From a virus (lineage: Duplodnaviria; Heunggongvirae; Uroviricota; Caudoviricetes), in the IMG/VR virus record IMGVR_UViG_2778261245_000001, positions 1-38,365 of that record: a stretch of 38,365 nucleotides of DNA; one strand, 5' to 3'. The notes under the pieces are model-generated. The model was not told the DNA's origin and made no database searches. It saw nothing but the letters and a program-made list of their open reading frames with translations. Positions 403-19,152 of the stretch are shown in pieces (the first letter of the stretch is position 1; every line of letters starts with the position of its first letter). The translations under genes and the position numbers were made by a program.

Positions 403-1533
403 TCATATTGTTAAAGTTACCCAATTTTTTCCGCGGAGATCGTTATAACGATCAGTTTGTTGCTGGGTTTTATGTCCCAGCAATTTCTGAGTATCTATTC
501 CCTGTTCTTTGTATAGCCTTTCTGACAATGAACGTTGCTCATGAAAGGTTGCTGGGGTTCCTTCACCCCAATCAATTTCAGCCAGATCCCTTGCTTTGCT
601 AAAATTCATAGTCAGAGTATTAGCTTTTACTTGTGCCCCACGTTCTGCCTGTGAAGTTGATCTGAAAAAATGTACTAAGTATGGACTATCTACATAGTCA
701 CGGCAGCGAGCTACAACATCGCGCAGGCTCCAGTTGATTACATTCAAACGAAGAGAAAGAGGAATGGCTATTTTGCTGCCGGTTTTTTCCTGTTCGATAT
801 GCAGATGATCATCCCAGATATCGCTGAATTTCATTTTGGATATATCTCCCAAACGTTGGCCAGTAACCAGCGCTAACAGCATGGCATTTCCCATGTAACG
901 ATGAGTGGAGTCTGCGATATCAAAAATTTTTTGCCATTCTTCCAGGCTGAGGCGTTGACGGGTGATTTTCCTTCTGGGTTGCTTCGTCGCAAGAGCAGGG
1001 TTATACCCTGGTGGAACTTCGCCATAATGCTGTGCTTCCTTAAACACATCGATTAATACAGACCTTACGACTTGGGCCATTCTAGGCTGTCCAGCTGTAA
1101 TATACTCATCAAGCAATTGTGCTATATCTCTGACATCAACGGATGAGATCAACTTCATTCCTGCTCGTTCTCTGAGCAAGGATACTGGTTTGGCTTTTTG
1201 CTTATAGGTATTGAGTCTTATATCACCACTTTTGAGCCTATCATCCTGGATCGCTTGATAGCGATCTAACCAGGTTGACGTTGTGATCGCTTTTCCTTTG
1301 CAGGTTGCGATCCTGTCACTGATAGCCAGAATCTGTCGGGTTCTTTGTTCAGCCAGGCGTGTATTGGCTTCAGTGGCAATAGCGATGGCTTCAGCTTCGT
1401 TAGTTCCCAACGCATGAAATTTCCCTGTTACTGGATGCTTATACCGCCAATAGACTTTATTTACCTTCCTACTATAAAGCGGATATAAGTTAGGTACTGA
1501 AACATTATTCTTACGCGGTCTGGCTGCCATCAC
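403..1533 (-). CDS. int: Lambda-family tyrosine integrase
   Basis: 376 aa; C-terminal catalytic region ending FHEQRSLSERLY...LLGHK...YNDLRG closely parallels the lambda Int C-terminus (FHELRSLSARLY...LLGHK...YRDDRG); followed by excisionase as in lambda. Confidence 0.9.
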   Translation of the reverse strand: MMAARPRKNNVSVPNLYPLYSRKVNKVYWRYKHPVTGKFHALGTNEAEAIAIATEANTRLAEQRTRQILAISDRIATCKGKAITTSTWLDRYQAIQDDRLKSGDIRLNTYKQKAKPVSLLRERAGMKLISSVDVRDIAQLLDEYITAGQPRMAQVVRSVLIDVFKEAQHYGEVPPGYNPALATKQPRRKITRQRLSLEEWQKIFDIADSTHRYMGNAMLLALVTGQRLGDISKMKFSDIWDDHLHIEQEKTGSKIAIPLSLRLNVINWSLRDVVARCRDYVDSPYLVHFFRSTSQAERGAQVKANTLTMNFSKARDLAEIDWGEGTPATFHEQRSLSERLYKEQGIDTQKLLGHKTQQQTDRYNDLRGKNWVTLTI

Positions 1534-3096: not shown

Positions 3097-3771
3097 TTAG
3101 GCTTTGATTTTGTATCTTCTTGGTTTTCCTGAGAAAATCACAGTACCAATTATAGAGCAATTACCGTTGATCTTAATGTAAGGCTCAGGCCAGTTTGGGT
3201 TTAACGCTTTGAGATAACGCTGTGTCCCATCTTCTATCAACCTTTTGAAGGTGGTTTCACCTGTATCGTGCATCAATGCAATAACGTCGTCACCGTGGCA
3301 GGCAGGTACTTCAGGATCGACAAAAATCATGTCTCCCGGGCGGTACTCATCAATCATTGAATCACCTATCACCCGCAAGATATAAGTCATTTCCCCACAG
3401 GGTACAGGGCAGGGATACGTTTCTGCTGTGCTCAAATCAACCTCAGAATATCCAACTTCTTTCCATGCTCCGGCCTGTACCCATGATATGACAGGGACTA
3501 ATGTGATTTGTTTATTAGTGATTGAAACATCAGGTTTTTTTGTGATGTTCGTTGTCTGGTGTTCTTGATCGAGCCATCCGACAGGCAGGTCGAAACATTT
3601 TTCGATGTGTCGTGCCATGCTGTCACCGATATTTTTAGTAGCACCATCTCCCATAAACCTGCTGGTTTGGGTTGGCTCGCGATCAATCATAGTGGCAAAG
3701 GAAGAATTCCCGCCAACACCATCTCTCAGTTTTCTGGCGTTAGACCGCCGGATGTCATGGATTGTTTTCAT
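3097..3771 (-). CDS. CI-type prophage repressor (N-terminal HTH plus C-terminal S24 LexA-like peptidase domain)
   Basis: 224 aa; C-terminal ...YILRVIGDSMIDEYRPGDMIFVDP... is the S24 autocleavage domain signature; divergent from a cro-like gene; same length as e14 CohE. Confidence 0.9.
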   Translation of the reverse strand: MKTIHDIRRSNARKLRDGVGGNSSFATMIDREPTQTSRFMGDGATKNIGDSMARHIEKCFDLPVGWLDQEHQTTNITKKPDVSITNKQITLVPVISWVQAGAWKEVGYSEVDLSTAETYPCPVPCGEMTYILRVIGDSMIDEYRPGDMIFVDPEVPACHGDDVIALMHDTGETTFKRLIEDGTQRYLKALNPNWPEPYIKINGNCSIIGTVIFSGKPRRYKIKA

Positions 3772-7976: not shown

Positions 7977-8965
7977 GTGAGAGCACTACTGACCCCTGAA
8001 ATTGCCCCGCGTATGGGGATCGTATTGTTCAGACCAGGTTCAGAGCTGATGCCCCTGTTTATGCAGGGGCGTGTCCTGCTGGAGCCTGAGCCGGAGCATT
8101 ATTCATCTTTCGCCAGTGGTGCCGTTCCCGCGGCATCACAACCGCTGGCGGATGATCCTGCCGTTCGGGCCGTGTTCCGTAATGAGGCAGTGATTCGTCG
8201 TGCTGGTGGGGTGGAATGTCTTGAAAGCTGGTTACTTCGTGAAAAAGGCTGCCAGTGGCCTCATTCCGACTGGCACAGCGAGAACATGACCACAATGCGA
8301 CACGCGCCGGGCGCAATCCGTCTGTGCTGGCACTGTGATAACCAGCTGCGCGATCAGTTCACGGAACGGCTGGAATCAATGGCAACGGATAACTGTGCCC
8401 GGTGGGTGTTATCTGTCGTGCGTCGGGATCTCGGTTTTAATGATAGTCACGTTGTGACAATGCCGGAACTGTGCTGGTGGCTGGTTCGTAATGACCTGGC
8501 GGATGCCTTACCGGAAAGTGCAGCCCGTAAGGCACTGAGATTACCGAAGCCTGTTGTGCCGTCTGTCACCCGGGAAAGTGACCTTGTGCCTTCGGTTCCT
8601 GCCCCAGCATCATCCAGGATAAAGCGAAAAAGGTGCTGGCGCTGAAAGTGGATCCGGAGTCGCCGGAGTCTTTTATGTTACGCCCCAAACGTCGCCGCTG
8701 GGTTAATGAAAAGTACACGCGCTGGGTTAAGACGCAGCCGTGCGCATGTTGTGGAAAGCCTGCTGATGATGCCCACCACCTGATAGGTCACGGTCAGGGT
8801 GGAATGGGTACAAAAGCGCATGACCTTTTTGTGTTGCCTTTGTGCAGAAAGCATCACGACGAGCTGCATGCGGATACCGTGGTATTTGAAGAGAAGTATG
8901 GCTCCCAGTTGGAGCTGATATTTCGTTTTATTGATCGTGCGCTGGCAATTGGCGTGCTGGCCTGA
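7977..8965 (+). pseudogene. DUF968/YdfU-like gene split by a frameshift into two ORFs (7977-8645 and 8633-8965)
   Basis: Two adjacent ORFs in different frames (222 + 110 aa) whose sum matches a roughly 330-aa DUF968 protein; the second carries a Cys/His zinc-binding-like motif CACCGKPADDAHH...PLCRKHHDELH; junction lies at an A5 run near 8604-8608. Confidence 0.5.
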
Positions 8966-8979
8966 TTTGGTGGAGAAAG

Positions 8980-9330
8980 TTGATGCGTGATATGTATGAA
9001 GTATTGGACCGCTGGGGAGCATGGGCTGCAGCAGAAAATAGTGGTGTGGACTGGCAGCCGATAGCGGCTGGTTTCAAGGGACTTTTACCACACGGTAAAA
9101 AGTCACGTCTCCAGTGTGATGATGATGAAGGCATCATGATAGATAGTTGTGTGGCTAGGTTGCGTAAATATAAGCCGGAAGAGTATGAGCTGATAATTGC
9201 TCACTTTGTTATCGGTATCTCATTACGCACTATTGCGAAGAAGAGAAAATGCTCTGATGGGACTATAAGAAAAAAGTTGCAAGCTGCATTGGGATTTATT
9301 GATGCAGTTATATATATAATACATGGGTAA
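8980..9330 (+). CDS. Late-gene antiterminator Q
   Basis: 116 aa; LDRWGAWAAAENSGVDWQPIAAGFKGL...KSRLQCDDDEGIMIDSCVARL matches the Q-family pattern of lambdoid prophages. Confidence 0.8.
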   Translation: MMRDMYEVLDRWGAWAAAENSGVDWQPIAAGFKGLLPHGKKSRLQCDDDEGIMIDSCVARLRKYKPEEYELIIAHFVIGISLRTIAKKRKCSDGTIRKKLQAALGFIDAVIYIIHG

Positions 9331-9337
9331 TTTATTA

Positions 9338-9356
9338 GACGGCCATATTGGCCGTC
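9338..9356. terminator. Bidirectional hairpin terminator between Q and the convergent cassette
   Basis: Perfect hairpin GACGGCCA-TAT-TGGCCGTC with AT-rich flanks on both sides; overlaps the stop codon of the 9355-10542 gene. Confidence 0.55.
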
Positions 9357-10542
9357 AGCTAAATAAATATGTAATAGCATAAGGCGTAAGTAAAAAGTAG
9401 AATCTAAATGTAAGATATAAGCCACATAAAACTATAATTCCTAATGAGGCAAAAACAACTTTCTGAACAAGCAATCTTGTGGTTAAACTATCAAATGTAT
9501 CCTTTATATCTTCGTAAATAGCCTTGAAGTTATATTCTGCTTGTTGTTTTTTATGATTTAACTCATCATTTATTGCTGTTAAAGTTTGCCATTGATTAAA
9601 TAGAACAAATAGAATCATAATAGTGAAGAACAATGCACCCAACACTACAGCTGTGTTTATTAATGCTTGACTATCCCAACCATTAGCCTGCTTCATTTGA
9701 GTCGCAACGATAATTGTTGCGACGGGGATACCTAATATCTGATTTTGTATGTCACTGAATACTTTATGTATTTTCCCCATCTCTTCTATTTTGGCTACTC
9801 GTAACTGATCCAGTATTTTCTCGTAAGAAAAACCAGAAACGAATACTTTGTATCCTTTTTGATAACTTTCATAAAGTTGTCCTAAATCCCTTAACATGAA
9901 GGAAAAAGAGGTTTCTTTAGTTTTAGATTCACATGATGATTTTATACTACTTGCTAAAATAGTAAGTTTTTGATCTTTATGCGTATCTTCTGCAAAGTTT
10001 GCGATCAAATTATGAATCAGATCTCCATTAACATTCATAAGATCATCGCTAGAATAATTTACTGGAATTTTTAGTACGTTGGATTCGACGAATACCAATT
10101 CAAAATTTGTTTCATCTAAATAAGCAGAACAATCTTTGAATAAAGTAATTAAGCTCAAAACATCTCTGTACTTGGATATAATAGCAGGCGACTTTTTATC
10201 CCTGTTGTGATAATTAAGTTCGATTATAAAGAAGTTACTGGCTTCCTTTATCCTATTTTTAGGATTTTTTAAATACTCATTAAAAGAGAAATGTAGCTGC
10301 CCCAATCGTAATTTGGGGGGGGTTATATGTAAGGTTATAGTTTGGCCTAACTCAATGTTGCCAGATTCAAGGGTGATGCCAAAATCATGGGGATTCTCTG
10401 TGATATCGTTGATGATGTCACAGAGCTCCTCGTTTGAAAGAATGAGTGATGCTTCAGATAGGGTACCTGCAAATGTAGCGGCCTTGTAAATAGTCACTAA
10501 GTCTTTGAAGGTTCTCTGATTGTTACTGCTCATCCTCTTCAC
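9355..10542 (-). CDS. Hypothetical protein with large N-terminal soluble domain and C-terminal two-helix transmembrane hairpin (cassette gene B)
   Basis: 395 aa, AT-rich codon usage; hydrophobic segments ALINTAVVLGALFFTIMILFVLF and VVFASLGIIVLCGLYLTFRFYFLL near the C-terminus; start overlaps upstream gene stop (GAGGATGAG); ATG at 10533 is an alternative start. Confidence 0.6.
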   Translation of the reverse strand: MKRMSSNNQRTFKDLVTIYKAATFAGTLSEASLILSNEELCDIINDITENPHDFGITLESGNIELGQTITLHITPPKLRLGQLHFSFNEYLKNPKNRIKEASNFFIIELNYHNRDKKSPAIISKYRDVLSLITLFKDCSAYLDETNFELVFVESNVLKIPVNYSSDDLMNVNGDLIHNLIANFAEDTHKDQKLTILASSIKSSCESKTKETSFSFMLRDLGQLYESYQKGYKVFVSGFSYEKILDQLRVAKIEEMGKIHKVFSDIQNQILGIPVATIIVATQMKQANGWDSQALINTAVVLGALFFTIMILFVLFNQWQTLTAINDELNHKKQQAEYNFKAIYEDIKDTFDSLTTRLLVQKVVFASLGIIVLCGLYLTFRFYFLLTPYAITYLFS

Positions 10543-11557
10543 CTAATTCTGATAAAATCTCTGATCTTAGCGTATCCGGAATCTCGGTAAGTATCAATTT
10601 ATCGTTTTCTGAATCATAAAGAACGCTGCCATCATGCAAGGCCGCACGCTCGAATTTCAGAGACCAATGTTTGGACTTTCCTTTGAAACTAACAAGCCCA
10701 CGTATAACGTTGCCATCAGGCACGAACCCATCAGAGAACTCCAGATCGTCATTGGTTAACTTTTCAACTAACAACTCAGGAGCAGTTGGCCATATCTCGT
10801 TTGCAAAAATTTGAGTGTCGAAAGTTTCACCAGAACGATTTAAATTTTTTAATTTTTCATGAGCCTTATTTAGGAACTCTTCACGTGCCTCTGGTTCAAA
10901 ACCTCTTTCAGTAGCAAATTCTAAAAGTGCATTCCGTAATTTTGTTGTTTCTTGTTTGGCAATTAGAATATCGTTGCAACCTAAAAACTTTTTGAAATAA
11001 CCTGCTACTGAATTTTGCCCCTTTAGAAAGCTAATATATCTCTCTTTGCCATTCTGGCGCCCAGTTAAGTCAATTCGTCCCGCTACTCGAAGTTTAGCAA
11101 TGTCTAGATATTCACTTTCTTGAATTTCAAAATCGTGGACTGAAGAGCCAACTGCTGATGTTAGGATTGCAACCATCAAATAATGATTTCCATTTACCTC
11201 ATTATGGGCAATTATTACATAACCACCAGTAGACATTGATTCATCATCGGCTCTGGCTTTTAAATGATTGATCATTCGGATACTAGTATCATAAAAACTA
11301 TGTGTTTTATTTACGAAATAATCATCAACGATATTACCCATAGGGTAACTATCGCGGTCATCTTCAAATTTCCCATATCCTTTACCTGCTCTCCCAGAGT
11401 ACCTTTCAGTAAGTGCGTTAGAGAGGTCTTTTGATGCTTGCTGAACAGGTTTTTCTGAAGGACAAGGAATAATGGTGGCTAACCCCTGTTGTTCCTTGTT
11501 CATAATGTGAACAATAAACTTATGAGTGATATTAGTGGGGGTCGCTGATGCAGTCAT
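10523..11557 (-). CDS. YejK/NdpA-family nucleoid-associated protein homolog (cassette gene A)
   Basis: 344 aa; similarity to E. coli YejK along the whole length as recalled: N-terminal ITHKFIVHIMNKEQQ (YejK INQIALHQLIKRDEQ), central YLDIAKLRVAGRIDLT...RYISFLKG...FLG (YejK YLDINHADIVARIDLT...RYLTFLKG...FLG), C-terminal KLILTEIPDTLRSEI (YejK TLTIKGTPPNLRDQL); AAGGA RBS upstream. Confidence 0.65.
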   Translation of the reverse strand: MTASATPTNITHKFIVHIMNKEQQGLATIIPCPSEKPVQQASKDLSNALTERYSGRAGKGYGKFEDDRDSYPMGNIVDDYFVNKTHSFYDTSIRMINHLKARADDESMSTGGYVIIAHNEVNGNHYLMVAILTSAVGSSVHDFEIQESEYLDIAKLRVAGRIDLTGRQNGKERYISFLKGQNSVAGYFKKFLGCNDILIAKQETTKLRNALLEFATERGFEPEAREEFLNKAHEKLKNLNRSGETFDTQIFANEIWPTAPELLVEKLTNDDLEFSDGFVPDGNVIRGLVSFKGKSKHWSLKFERAALHDGSVLYDSENDKLILTEIPDTLRSEILSELGEEDEQ

Positions 11558-13338: not shown

Positions 13339-13587
13339 ATGGCATTTCGTTATTTTGAACTTACCGAAAATATTCCTTTTGAGGATGCAAGAGAGCTTCA
13401 CGTACAGTTCAAACACCACTTAGAATATGTTGTAAAGGCATTATTTATGTTAGGAACACATGAAAAGCATTTAATTGTTGAAGGCCGGGATGACGAATCG
13501 ATAACACAGATATTTGGTGGGCATGATGAAAAGTTTATGCATCTTTATCATATCGATGAATATGAAAAACGTGAAGACTTAATCTAA
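13339..13587 (+). CDS. Hypothetical small protein, 82 aa
   Basis: ORF with GGAGG-like RBS (gggaggtagatATG); preceded by a perfect 12-bp palindrome TTGTCATGACAA at about 13284-13295. Confidence 0.4.
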   Translation: MAFRYFELTENIPFEDARELHVQFKHHLEYVVKALFMLGTHEKHLIVEGRDDESITQIFGGHDEKFMHLYHIDEYEKREDLI

Positions 13588-13702
13588 CCTCCTACGACTG
13601 TTTTTATTGCCATCATAAAAGCCATTCCTTGCAGAGTGGCTTTGATAATGGATATCCCAACAAGCGGATAAGACAATAAATATACCCACCAGGGGATAAA
13701 CA

Positions 13703-13948
13703 ATGTCTAAAATCACGGTTACACCTGCATAGCAGATCCGCTTAAACCTGCTGGCGAAACTGAACTATGACACCGCCGCTGCAGCAGACGCGATTAAGTT
13801 TGTTGGTGACGATCCGTTGAAGTATCAAATCTTTGTGAACCAGTTAAGCTGGGTAATATCTGAAAGCGGGCTGGTAGCCAGAACGACGAAAGCTATCAAA
13901 GAGTCGGAAGACACACTACTGTGGTTTGAAGCTGAATCTGGTTCATAA
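13703..13948 (+). pseudogene. 81-codon reading frame with good RBS interrupted by an in-frame TAG at codon 10 (13730-13732)
   Basis: AGGGGA RBS 7 nt upstream of ATG 13703; frame reads MSKITVTPA-TAG-QIRLNLLAKLNYDTAAAADAIKFVGDDPLKYQIFVNQLSWVISESGLVARTTKAIKESEDTLLWFEAESGS, stopping at TAA 13946-13948 directly before the next gene. Confidence 0.4.
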
Positions 13949-13996
13949 GTGAATGAATGTGGTAATTTAATCCTCCGCAAAAAAAAGGGGATAAAA

Positions 13997-14218
13997 ATGC
14001 TAAAGAATGTCATAGCTATTTTACCGGGTGACGCGTTTGATCATGTTGTTGTCCAGGACGACCTGGAGATTGTTACCTTCAGGGGTGACAAGGGCGGCGT
14101 GCTTACTATGCCTATCGAGGAGTACGAACTAGACGGGATAAGTTATAACGTCGCACGTTGTGACGGTATGGTCACTGACGAAAAAGTTGAGAAGGCTATC
14201 AGACACTTCACCAAGTAA
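13997..14218 (+). CDS. Hypothetical small protein, 73 aa
   Basis: ATG with AAAGGGGA RBS; ORF track lists a GTG-extended version from 13949; followed by a strong terminator. Confidence 0.45.
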   Translation: MLKNVIAILPGDAFDHVVVQDDLEIVTFRGDKGGVLTMPIEEYELDGISYNVARCDGMVTDEKVEKAIRHFTK

Positions 14219-14235: not shown

Positions 14236-14260
14236 AAGCCTCGCAATAGCGAGGCTTTTT
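14236..14260 (+). terminator. Rho-independent terminator
   Basis: AAGCCTCGC-AATA-GCGAGGCTT followed by TTT. Confidence 0.75.
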
Positions 14261-15454: not shown

Positions 15455-15514
15455 GGGGCGGGTCAAATCTCTGTGACCTGACGTCTTCCGGACTGCCCGC
15501 CCCATCGTTTTTTT
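15455..15514. other. Candidate cos/packaging-site region between HNH and terminase genes
   Basis: G-rich inverted repeat GGGGCGGG (15455-15462) / CCCGCCCC (15496-15503) with 33-nt spacer followed by T7; inference from HK97-like gene order. Confidence 0.3.
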
Positions 15515-15553
15515 ATACCCGCGAAAAATGAAATTTAAACAGGAGTGCCGCAT

Positions 15554-16048
15554 ATGGCTGGAACGGCGGGGCGTTCCGGGCGTCGCCCCAAGCCAACGGC
15601 GCGCAAGGCGCTGGCCGGAAACCCCGGCAAGCGAGCCCTGAACAAAGATGAACCTGTTTTTACGCCCATCAAAGGGGTTGAGCCACCGGAGTGGTTCGCA
15701 GAAGAAAATCTCCCTCTCGCTACGATCATGTGGCAACTGACAACCAAAGAACTCTGCGGTCAGGGCCTGCTGTGCGTGACTGACCTCGCGGTGCTTGAGC
15801 GGTGGTGCGTAGCCTATGAGTTCTGGCGACGTGCCGTGAAAAATATTGCCAGCCAGGGCAACACCATCACCGGTGCAATGGGCGGTATGGTCAAAAATCC
15901 GGAGCTGACCGCCAAGAAAGAACAGGAGTCCGAGATGAGCAGCACGGGGGCAATGCTCGGACTCGACCCCAGCAGCCGCCAGCGTCTGATTGGCCTGGCG
16001 GGGCAGAAGAAAGCCACTAACCCGTTTCTGAAAATTATCGAATCATGA
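15554..16048 (+). CDS. Terminase small subunit (P27 family)
   Basis: ATG 15554 with AGGAG RBS; N-terminal [14 protein letters not shown] typical of P27-family TerS; precedes TerL with overlapping stop/start. Confidence 0.8.
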
Positions 16049-17778
16049 GCCGGAAATCTTACCCCAACGTAAATGCAGCCAATCAGTATGCCCGTGATGT
16101 CGTGCGCGGAAAGATTGTGGCCTGCCAGTTTGTGATTCAGGCCTGCCAGCGCCATCTTGATGACCTGATGGCGGAAAAAAGTAAGTCGTTTCGTTACCGC
16201 TTCGACAAGGACCTGGCTGAACGGGCCGCGAAATTTATTCAGCTGTTGCCGCACACCAAGGGTGAGTGGGCATTCAAACGGATGCCCATCACGCTGGAGC
16301 CGTGGCAGCTATTTGTGATCTGCTGTGCGTTTGGCTGGGTCAATAAAGGCACCCGGTTGCGCCGCTTCCGGGAGGTGTATACCGAAATCCCCCGTAAGAA
16401 CGGCAAATCAGCAATCTCTGCCGGTGTTGCCCTGTATTGTTTTGCCTGTGATAACGAGTTTGGCGCGGAAGTGTATTCCGGTGCCACGACAGAGAAACAG
16501 GCGTGGGAAGTCTTTCGCCCGGCGCGACTGATGTGTAAACGCACACCCATGCTGACGGAAGCGTTCGGGATTGAGGTTAACGCCTCAAACATGAACCGTC
16601 CGGAGGATGGCGCGCGGTTTGAACCGCTGATCGGTAACCCTGGTGATGGTTCATCACCCCACTGTGCGGTGGTGGATGAATATCACGAGCACGCCACCGA
16701 TGCGCTTTATACCACGATGCTTACCGGGATGGGGGCGCGACGTCAGCCACTGATGTGGGCCATCACCACCGCCGGGTACAACATTGAGGGGCCGTGCTAC
16801 GACAAGCGGCGGGAAGTTATCGAGATGCTCAACGGTTCGGTACCCAACGATGAACTGTTCGGGATCATCTATACCGTTGATGAAGGTGACGACTGGACCG
16901 ACCCGCAGGTGCTGGAAAAAGCCAATCCAAATATTGGCGTGTCGGTTTATCGCGAATTTTTGTTAAGTCAGCAGCAGCGTGCTAAAAATAACGCCCGTCT
17001 GGCAAACGTCTTTAAAACAAAACACCTCAATATCTGGGTGTCGGCGCGTTCGGCGTATTTCAACCTGGTGAGCTGGCAGAGCTGCGAGGATAAATCACTG
17101 ACCCTTGAGCAGTTCGAGGGGCAGCCGTGCATTCTGGCCTTTGACCTGGCGCGTAAGCTGGATATGAACAGCATGGCGCGACTTTATACCCGCGAGATTG
17201 ACGGTAAAACGCATTACTACAGTGTGGCCCCGCGTTTCTGGGTACCGTATGACACGGTGTACAGCGTCGAGAAAAATGAAGATCGCCGGACAGCCGAACG
17301 CTTTCAGAAATGGGTGGAAATGGGCGTTCTGACTGTTACCGCTGGTGCGGAGGTGGATTATCGCTACATCCTCGAGGAGGCCAAAGCGGCGAACAAAATC
17401 AGCCCGGTCAGTGAGTCACCCATCGACCCCTTCGGGGCGACCGGGCTGTCGCATGACCTTGCTGATGAAGACCTGAACCCCATCACCATCATTCAGAACT
17501 ACACCAACATGTCCGATCCGATGAAAGAGCTGGAAGCGGCGATTGAATCGGGGCGCTTTCATCATGACGGCAATCCCATCATGACCTGGTGTATCGGCAA
17601 CGTGGTCGGCAAAACCATTCCGGGTAACGATGATGTGGTGAAGCCTGTCAAGGAGCAGGCGGAAAACAAAATCGATGGTGCGGTTGCACTGATTATGGCG
17701 ATCGGTCGGGCAATGCTCAAAGAACCCGACGATTTCCTCTCATCTCTTGATCCGGACGATGCTCTCTTAATTCTATGA
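16045..17778 (+). CDS. Terminase large subunit
   Basis: 577 aa; size, position and ATPase/nuclease-like layout. Confidence 0.9.
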
Positions 17779-17930
17779 AATCACTAATTGCTGATGTTAT
17801 CGGGCTGGCTGGTTTTGGCCTGCTTACGTGCGGGTTTTACCTGCAGTTTGGTATGGCTCCGGCTCTGATGCTGTCCGGCGGTTTACTGCTGGTGGGCGCA
17901 CTGGCTATGGCCAGAAGGGGGACGCGTGCT
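17775..17930 (+). CDS. Possible small hydrophobic protein (51 aa) between terminase and portal
   Basis: ATG overlapping the TerL stop (ATGA); translation [53 protein letters not shown] is almost entirely hydrophobic; below ORF-track size cutoff. Confidence 0.3.
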
Positions 17931-19152
17931 GCTTGATGCTCTGTTCAGAAGTAAATCACTGGAGAATCCTTCCACCCCGATAACCGGGGATGCCGTTGAT
18001 ACTGATGGGCTGTTCCGGGCAGACGTTTATGTCAGTCCTGAAACTGCGATGAAACTGGCTGCGGTGTATTCCTGTATCTATGTCCTGTCTTCCAGCCTTG
18101 CCCAGATGCCGTTGCATGTTATGCGCAGGCACAATGGGAAGGTTGAGCCCGCACGCGATCATCCGGCGTTTTATCTGGTTCATGATGAGCCCAATACCTG
18201 GCAAACCAGTTACAAATGGCGCGAACTGAAGCAACGTCACATCCTTGGCTGGGGGAATGGGTATACCTGGGTGAAACGTAATCGTCGCGGTGAAGTCATA
18301 TCCCTGGATTGCTGTATGCCGTGGGAAACGACGCTGATGAATACTGGTGGCCGATACACCTACGGTTTGTACAACGAATATGGGGCGTTTGCGATCAGCC
18401 CCGACGATATGATCCACATCCGTGCGCTGGGTAATAATCAGAAGATGGGGCTGAGTCCGATTATGCAACATGCCGAAACAATAGGCATGGGGATGAGCGG
18501 TCAGAAATACACAGAAAGCTTCTTCAGCGGTAATGCCCGTCCGGCGGGGATAGTATCCGTTAAAAGCGGACTCAATAAGGACAGCTGGGGCTGGCTTAAA
18601 GATCAGTGGCAGAAGGCATCGCAGGCGTTACGCAGCCAGGAAAACAAAACCATGCTGCTGCCAGCCGATCTGGATTACAAGGCACTGACTGTGTCGCCAG
18701 TTGACGCTCAGATCATTGACATGATGAAACTGAACCGTTCAATGATTGCCGGTATTTTCAATATTCCTGCGCACATGATTAATGACCTCGAAAAAGCCAC
18801 CTTCTCCAATATTTCTGCGCAGGCGATTCAGTTTGTCCGCTACACGATGATGCCGTGGGTGACGAACTGGGAGCAGGAGCTTAACCGTCGCTTGTTTACC
18901 CGCGCTGAGTTAGCCGCCGGGTATTACGTCAGGTTCAATCTGACGGGGCTTTTACGCGGAACTCCACAGGAGCGCGCGCAATTCTATCACTTCGCTATTA
19001 CCGATGGATGGATGAGCCGTAATGAGGCCCGTGCATTCGAGGATATGAATCCGGTTGAAGGGCTGGATGAGATGCTGGTAAGCGTGAATGCTGCTAACCC
19101 GGCAGGAGATTTTAAGCCCCCAAAAAATGATGAGGGAAAAACCAATGAATGA
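17926..19152 (+). CDS. Portal protein (HK97 family)
   Basis: 408 aa directly downstream of terminase; position and size. Confidence 0.85.
   Translation: MLLDALFRSKSLENPSTPITGDAVDTDGLFRADVYVSPETAMKLAAVYSCIYVLSSSLAQMPLHVMRRHNGKVEPARDHPAFYLVHDEPNTWQTSYKWRELKQRHILGWGNGYTWVKRNRRGEVISLDCCMPWETTLMNTGGRYTYGLYNEYGAFAISPDDMIHIRALGNNQKMGLSPIMQHAETIGMGMSGQKYTESFFSGNARPAGIVSVKSGLNKDSWGWLKDQWQKASQALRSQENKTMLLPADLDYKALTVSPVDAQIIDMMKLNRSMIAGIFNIPAHMINDLEKATFSNISAQAIQFVRYTMMPWVTNWEQELNRRLFTRAELAAGYYVRFNLTGLLRGTPQERAQFYHFAITDGWMSRNEARAFEDMNPVEGLDEMLVSVNAANPAGDFKPPKNDEGKTNE

Follow-up and report, generated by a model that had tools for sequence, protein, structure and literature searches.

An amber codon at position 10 of a DUF2560 gene in an SfV-like Escherichia coli prophage: a probable nonsense pseudogene of one prophage lineage

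A small gene in the late region of a prophage has a well-formed start, and nine codons further on it has an amber codon in frame with the remainder of the gene. The question raised by this locus is whether the stop is an ordinary inactivating mutation or part of the way in which the gene is expressed. The window, by which we mean the whole stretch of 38,365 nucleotides that was analysed, has structural genes 97% identical to those of Shigella phage SfV and contains contractile-tail genes; judged by its sequence the element is an SfV-like lambdoid prophage of E. coli. Within the late operon the locus comes after the lysis cassette and before the HNH/small-terminase genes (Table 1).

Table 1. 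Positions in the window of the parts of the DUF2560 locus and of other genes of the prophage.
Feature	Position	Strand	Remarks
5' leader of the DUF2560 gene	13588-13702	+	near-identical in intact orthologues, at least in the final 40-60 nt before the ATG
Shine-Dalgarno (SD)-like AGGGGA	13691-13696	+	6 nt 5' of ATG 13703
Start codon and eight sense codons, MSKITVTPA	13703-13729	+	aligns with MSEITVTPA of intact orthologues
In-frame amber TAG, codon 10	13730-13732	+	in place of conserved Gln CAG/CAA; orthologue alignment
Rest of the DUF2560 frame, 71 sense codons and TAA	13733-13948	+	family match persists
TAA stop of the DUF2560 frame	13946-13948	+	
Whole DUF2560 gene, probable pseudogene	13703-13948	+	conceptual product of 81 aa, 82 codons with stop; PF10834 match
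Next gene, 73 aa, unknown function	13997-14218	+	own SD AAGGGGA; ATG 13997 according to RefSeq of near-identical genomes
Integrase	403-1533		
Q antiterminator	8983-9330		
Lysis cassette, lambda-type	holin 11848, lysozyme 12178, Rz 12651		
HNH / small terminase (P27-type)	15078, 15554		

A sequence-only reading had described the locus as AGGGGA followed by ATG 13703, nine sense codons, the TAG and 71 further sense codons, and this anatomy was confirmed when the sequence was read and translated. It also placed the first start after the TAG, with no ATG or GTG before it, at a TTG in codon 38; the TTG at 13817 is indeed the first canonical in-frame start 3' of the TAG, and it is codon 39. In the DUF2560 frame a mechanical ORF list contains just the 43-aa ORF from this TTG. 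An uninterrupted ORF of about 80 codons for the whole domain is absent from the window due to the TAG, and this copy is a disrupted member of its family. The statement that the next gene begins exactly where the frame ends did not hold: in near-identical genomes RefSeq starts that gene at ATG 13997, and GTG 13949 is no more than the earliest start that the longest ORF in its frame could use. The ORFs which overlap the region on the minus strand (13825-14013 and 13579-13716) are without a family match. In the plus-strand frame the substitutions between orthologues are mostly synonymous (dS 0.6-1.6 against dN 0.05-0.19), and this strong bias marks the plus-strand frame as the coding one.

When the TAG is read as Gln, the conceptual product matches Pfam PF10834 (DUF2560) with 53.7 bits and an E value of 2.5e-14, where the curated gathering cut-off is 25 bits; at the level of sequence this is far beyond chance. 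The alignment covers residues 5-72 of the product and positions 2-69 of the 72 in the profile, and therefore the TAG is inside the only domain. The conceptual product is 80-89% identical to many intact proteins of 81 aa. A search of a large protein collection gave 41 relatives, most of them exactly 81 aa long and with 70-89% identity, in Enterobacter, Leclercia, Silvania, Phytobacter, Klebsiella and E. coli. The window gene thus resembles, both in sequence family and in its length of 81 codons, the small DUF2560 proteins (PF10834; PHROG 571) of enterobacterial lambdoid, P22-like and SfV-like prophages. An intact orthologue, P0002, belongs to PHROG 571. The AF2 model of P0002 (mean pLDDT 91.9) has helices at residues 8-19, 24-34, 38-50 and 57-79 and predicts a compact four-helix fold, which the window allele would give only by read-through; it follows from the model that any product begun 3' of the TAG would miss part or all of helix 1. 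The family could be given no function: the PDB contains no sequence relative, the matches in BFVD are uncharacterised phage proteins only, and the literature on DUF2560 consists of incidental mentions.

How the TAG arose can be read from the orthologues. The relatives were obtained by searching at the protein level, and the close DNA orthologues by exact-protein look-ups and by a degenerate DNA pattern in which codon 10 was free and either A or G was allowed at the first base of codon 3. A megablast of the locus against a phage collection gave no match, and a scan of species-representative genomes gave nine loci, one of them close. An alignment with orthologues had been proposed in the sequence-only reading as a check, and it places a sense codon, CAG or CAA, exactly where the window has TAG. 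Codon 10 is Q in about 28 intact orthologues of 81 aa (E in one), down to 53% identity, and it sits in the conserved motif PAQQIRLNLL; the N-terminus of the orthologues is likewise conserved (MSEITVTPAQQIRLNLL). All 16 intact alleles examined as DNA have CAG or CAA at this codon. The other outcome considered beforehand, that orthologues start downstream of the TAG, is absent, as they have the same ATG, N-terminal residues and SD. In the closest intact alleles (L004, L034) the start, the leader and the SD position are common with the window gene. The leader before the intact gene in L004, L028, L031 and L033-L037 reads ...AGCGGATAAGACAAT[A/C]AATATACCCACCAG[G/A]GGATAAACA, and variants of the SD are found at equal distance from the start (AGAGGA in intact relatives, AAGGGA in L002/L030). 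As these intact alleles with the same leader have CAG or CAA there, a single C to T transition accounts for the amber codon.

The identical TAG was found in 13 independent copies, comprising the window, RefSeq E. coli genomes, other NCBI entries, IMG/VR and metagenome contigs. Six complete RefSeq E. coli genomes, from wastewater, water, sediment, soil and chicken, match the locus at 99-99.8%, and both of the two that were aligned have the TAG; NZ_CP064847.1 and NZ_LR778140/141/143 are among the complete genomes with the amber allele. The TAG is also present in six further NCBI assemblies with the truncated product. In the viral and metagenome collections the degenerate pattern matched 13 contigs, four with AAA (K3) and TAG and nine with GAA (E3) and CAG or CAA. 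The TAG is completely linked to one haplotype. All amber copies with enough flanking sequence have the same gene neighbourhood, and the index lists the truncated product on 75 contigs. The in-frame stop is thus restricted to a single near-clonal haplotype; diverged orthologues all have a sense codon there. The TAG together with K3, W50 and W74 makes a handy lineage marker for this SfV-like prophage.

The explanation which we prefer, with a probability of roughly 0.86, is that the region is a nonsense pseudogene of a dispensable DUF2560 accessory gene of the late operon, made by CAG to TAG at codon 10 and fixed in one SfV-like E. coli prophage lineage. The amber stop would be an ordinary inherited inactivating mutation and no special decoding signal. 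It resembles the ordinary nonsense pseudogenes of resident prophages in the single-base change from sense to stop, in its inheritance within a lineage, and in the secondary lesions (SD, stop) of a sub-lineage. The DUF968 frameshift in this prophage copy would, if real, be a further likeness. There is no essential difference from them; the rest of the window prophage appears to be in order, as none of its 40 long ORFs is interrupted. The sequence-only reading had offered a recent nonsense mutation as one of two possibilities; the CAG and CAA codons of the orthologues bear out the mutation, while "recent" can only be meant in a relative sense, as the allele is fixed in a whole prophage lineage (75 contigs).

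According to this explanation ribosomes on the late transcript would initiate at ATG 13703 and, after nine codons, be stopped at the UAG by RF1 with release of MSKITVTPA, which is expected to be the sole part with efficient translation. Basal read-through would give at most a trace of the 81-aa product, the 216 nt after the UAG would be essentially untranslated, and the next gene would be translated from its own SD. In lambda the Q-modified RNA polymerase resists Rho-dependent termination. If late transcription is driven by the Q antiterminator here as in lambda, the premature stop should cause no Rho-dependent polarity on the HNH and terminase genes, and the lesion should for this reason cost the phage little. 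With DUF2560 dispensable the lesion would be nearly free of cost, which would explain a dead allele throughout a prophage lineage: it could persist and spread with the prophage because the gene was not needed, and it may now be gaining further lesions. The biological importance is small: this is one more resident prophage in which an accessory gene that can be spared decays by mutation; the prophage persists with the dead allele, so DUF2560 would be dispensable for prophage maintenance. The databases contain further broken DUF2560 alleles, with frameshifted tails in P0028 and P0029 and replaced N-termini in P0030 and P0041, and this fits an accessory gene that is dispensable and often lost.

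Decay after the nonsense mutation was looked for in the amber lineage itself. The amber consensus differs from L034, an intact allele which is ancestral-like, at seven non-synonymous and ten synonymous codons. The non-synonymous differences are E3K, Q10*, N19K, R50W, E70D, A71T and L74W, and when they are polarised with five outgroups the changes fall on the amber branch. Residues E3 and L74 are invariant in 28 intact proteins and R50, E70 and A71 nearly so. Downstream of the TAG K19, W50, D70, T71 and W74 are specific to the lineage, and I52 is found in the window copy only; K3, K19, W50, I52, D70 and W74 occur in none of the orthologues. The 7 to 10 ratio of the amber branch is raised and short of neutral, and the difference is not significant (p = 0.32). 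Pairwise dN/dS of the amber allele against L004 is about 0.3, where most intact pairs give 0.05-0.15 and pairs with L024 about 0.3-0.35. The raised dN/dS is suggestive and not decisive.

Among the 13 amber copies four codons are polymorphic by non-synonymous changes (N21Y, D36E, T52I in the window itself, and the stop loss TAA to TAC) and none by synonymous ones, compared to 18 non-synonymous and 39 synonymous polymorphic sites in eight intact relatives (Fisher p = 0.014). It should be noted that a high non-synonymous share is expected at very recent divergence. The small genes flanking the locus, from holin to HNH in the same nine loci, have 10 non-synonymous and 7 synonymous polymorphic codons, and the 4:0 ratio does not differ significantly from these; as the flanking genes show a similarly high non-synonymous share, the selection signal from polymorphism is suggestive only. 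In the sub-lineage L002/L030 the stop has changed from TAA to TAC (window position 13948) and the SD from AGGGGA to AAGGGA by a G to A change (window position 13692). These are further degradation in descendants of the amber allele. Apart from this stop loss, no second in-frame stop and no frameshift was found in the 71 codons 3' of the TAG in any of the 13 copies. The intact downstream frame fits a young pseudogene, and it also fits a low-level function that has been retained.

The latter point bears on the second possibility of the sequence-only reading, that full expression of the gene needs read-through or suppression. The gene would then still be functional and be expressed at a low level or conditionally, by read-through at UAG-C or by an amber suppressor of the host. 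The SD, the ATG and the frame of 71 codons are intact in 11 of the 13 copies, the conceptual product is well over the Pfam threshold, and an allele whose truncated product is on 75 contigs is fairly widespread. The base after the TAG is C, and UAG-C is a relatively weak termination context in E. coli. A Gln-inserting suppressor of the supE type would moreover restore exactly the ancestral residue. Against this stand the confinement of the TAG to one near-clonal haplotype, with a sense codon in every diverged orthologue, the radical replacements E3K, R50W and L74W, and the loss of both the SD match and the stop codon in L002/L030. Natural E. coli isolates rarely have amber suppressors. The 38-kb window contains no tRNA genes, and TAG is the normal stop of two of its 40 genes, while internal stops are found in none of the 40 long ORFs; a suppressor tRNA of the phage and a reassignment of TAG were rejected on these grounds. 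We consider a still functional gene unlikely, and a need for read-through or suppression gains no support from these results.

Programmed or suppressor-dependent phage genes, such as the gene of the Qbeta A1 read-through protein, laboratory amber mutants like lambda Sam7 and the genes of phages with suppressor tRNAs, resemble the window gene in having an in-frame stop in a well-formed gene with a good start. They differ in that the window stop is not conserved in diverged homologues, in that it is near the N-terminus inside the only domain and does not separate a complete protein from an extension, and in that the window has no suppressor tRNA and no sign of TAG avoidance or recoding elsewhere.

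Another alternative is translation from a start 3' of the TAG, which would give a shorter DUF2560 protein that still functions, either 70 aa from ATC 13736, 51 aa from ATT 13793 or 43 aa from TTG 13817. PGAP annotates proteins of this kind, under the name "DUF2560 family protein", on 75 contigs as well as in six complete genomes, and a weak GGTGA is present 7 nt 5' of TTG 13817. The ATC and the ATT, however, are non-canonical starts with no SD-like sequence upstream, and the start of all intact orthologues is the upstream ATG, followed by a conserved N-terminus. Judged by the model of the fold, the 51-aa and 43-aa products would miss half of it (helices 1-2). The alignment contains no orthologues that are naturally this short, except the evidently broken P0027, P0030 and P0038. 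A functional protein of this kind is very unlikely. The RefSeq/PGAP entries in question are the 70-aa P0001 from ATC 13736 ("MULTISPECIES", 75 contigs) and the 51-aa P0027 (WP_435366616.1) from ATT 13793, found in L001 at 3204-3359. Both are probably annotation artefacts which come from a homology-guided choice of start around an internal stop. As such entries are already in the protein databases, the locus would be better annotated as a pseudogene with an internal stop. The 73-aa gene and DUF2560 share one reading frame, and for this reason the stop loss in L002/L030 fuses the two. PGAP has there a 141-aa "DUF2560 family protein" with an ATT start (WP_489816917.1; L002 3204-3629, and L030).

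One may further imagine that the amber allele is alive in a new way, as a conditional or dosage-reduced DUF2560 which depends on UAG-C read-through or on a Gln-inserting suppressor, or as a nine-residue peptide and a re-initiated fragment with a new role. This we regard as highly improbable, and what chance it has comes from the persistence of the SD, the ATG and the 71-codon frame in 11 of 13 copies. The remaining outcome considered beforehand, a sequencing or assembly error at the TAG of the window, has practically no probability, as 12 further independent assemblies, made in different projects and by different technologies, have the same TAG and are identical over the first 36 nt of the gene.

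The setting of the gene is remarkably constant across its relatives. DUF2560 is found after the lysis cassette and before the small terminase whatever modules flank it; the window has it in this slot, and so do relatives from Klebsiella, Enterobacter and E. coli whose lysis and terminase modules differ. The terminase types beside it are P27/Terminase_4, Terminase_2, DUF2280 and LysA. The loci L003 and L020-L025 keep the one slot with small terminases of at least four unrelated types and holin/endolysin genes of three types. The distribution suggests that DUF2560 travels with the junction between lysis and terminase genes and with neither module.

A scan for promoters and terminators around the DUF2560 gene gave none above shuffled expectation. 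By eye a few hairpins can be seen which the consensus scan did not list. The window has only a weak one 5' of DUF2560 (AAAGCCA...TGGCTTT, 13619-13645), and in L020 and L021, two relatives with an intact gene, a clean hairpin resembling a terminator, GCCACCTTCGGGTGGCTTTTTT, is found directly 5' of the gene. After the 73-aa gene of the window, at 14237-14260, there is a GC-rich hairpin with a T run, GCCTCGCAATAGCGAGGCTTTTT. Hairpins flanking DUF2560 and the 73-aa ORF give a hint that the two might form a moron-like unit.

Elsewhere in the window the DUF968 gene (7977-8965) is broken up into two ORFs, 7977-8645 and 8633-8965, that overlap in different frames. They match positions 2-53 and 66-171 of the Pfam DUF968 profile, and the break is near 8604. 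The window lacks one A compared to the intact 329-aa DUF968 gene of E. coli strain 20 (CTGCC-CCAGC against CTGCCACCAGC); the missing base is due either to a second inactivating mutation of this prophage copy or to a sequencing error next to a homopolymer. Between the Q antiterminator and the holin, in 9355-11557, there are two genes on the minus strand. One codes for a 344-aa nucleoid-associated protein of the NA37/YejK type (Pfam E 8e-69), the other for 395 aa without a Pfam match; the late leader region of a lambdoid phage is an unusual position for such cargo.

Among the amber-allele prophages (L005-L010) the segment from lysis genes to HNH is near-identical, with 0-5 polymorphic codons per gene, and for terS and terL (window approximately 15470-17950) the synonymous polymorphic codons number 26 and 70, which points to a putative recombination (mosaic) boundary near the cos/terS junction. 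Position 1 of SfV maps to approximately 15487 in the window.
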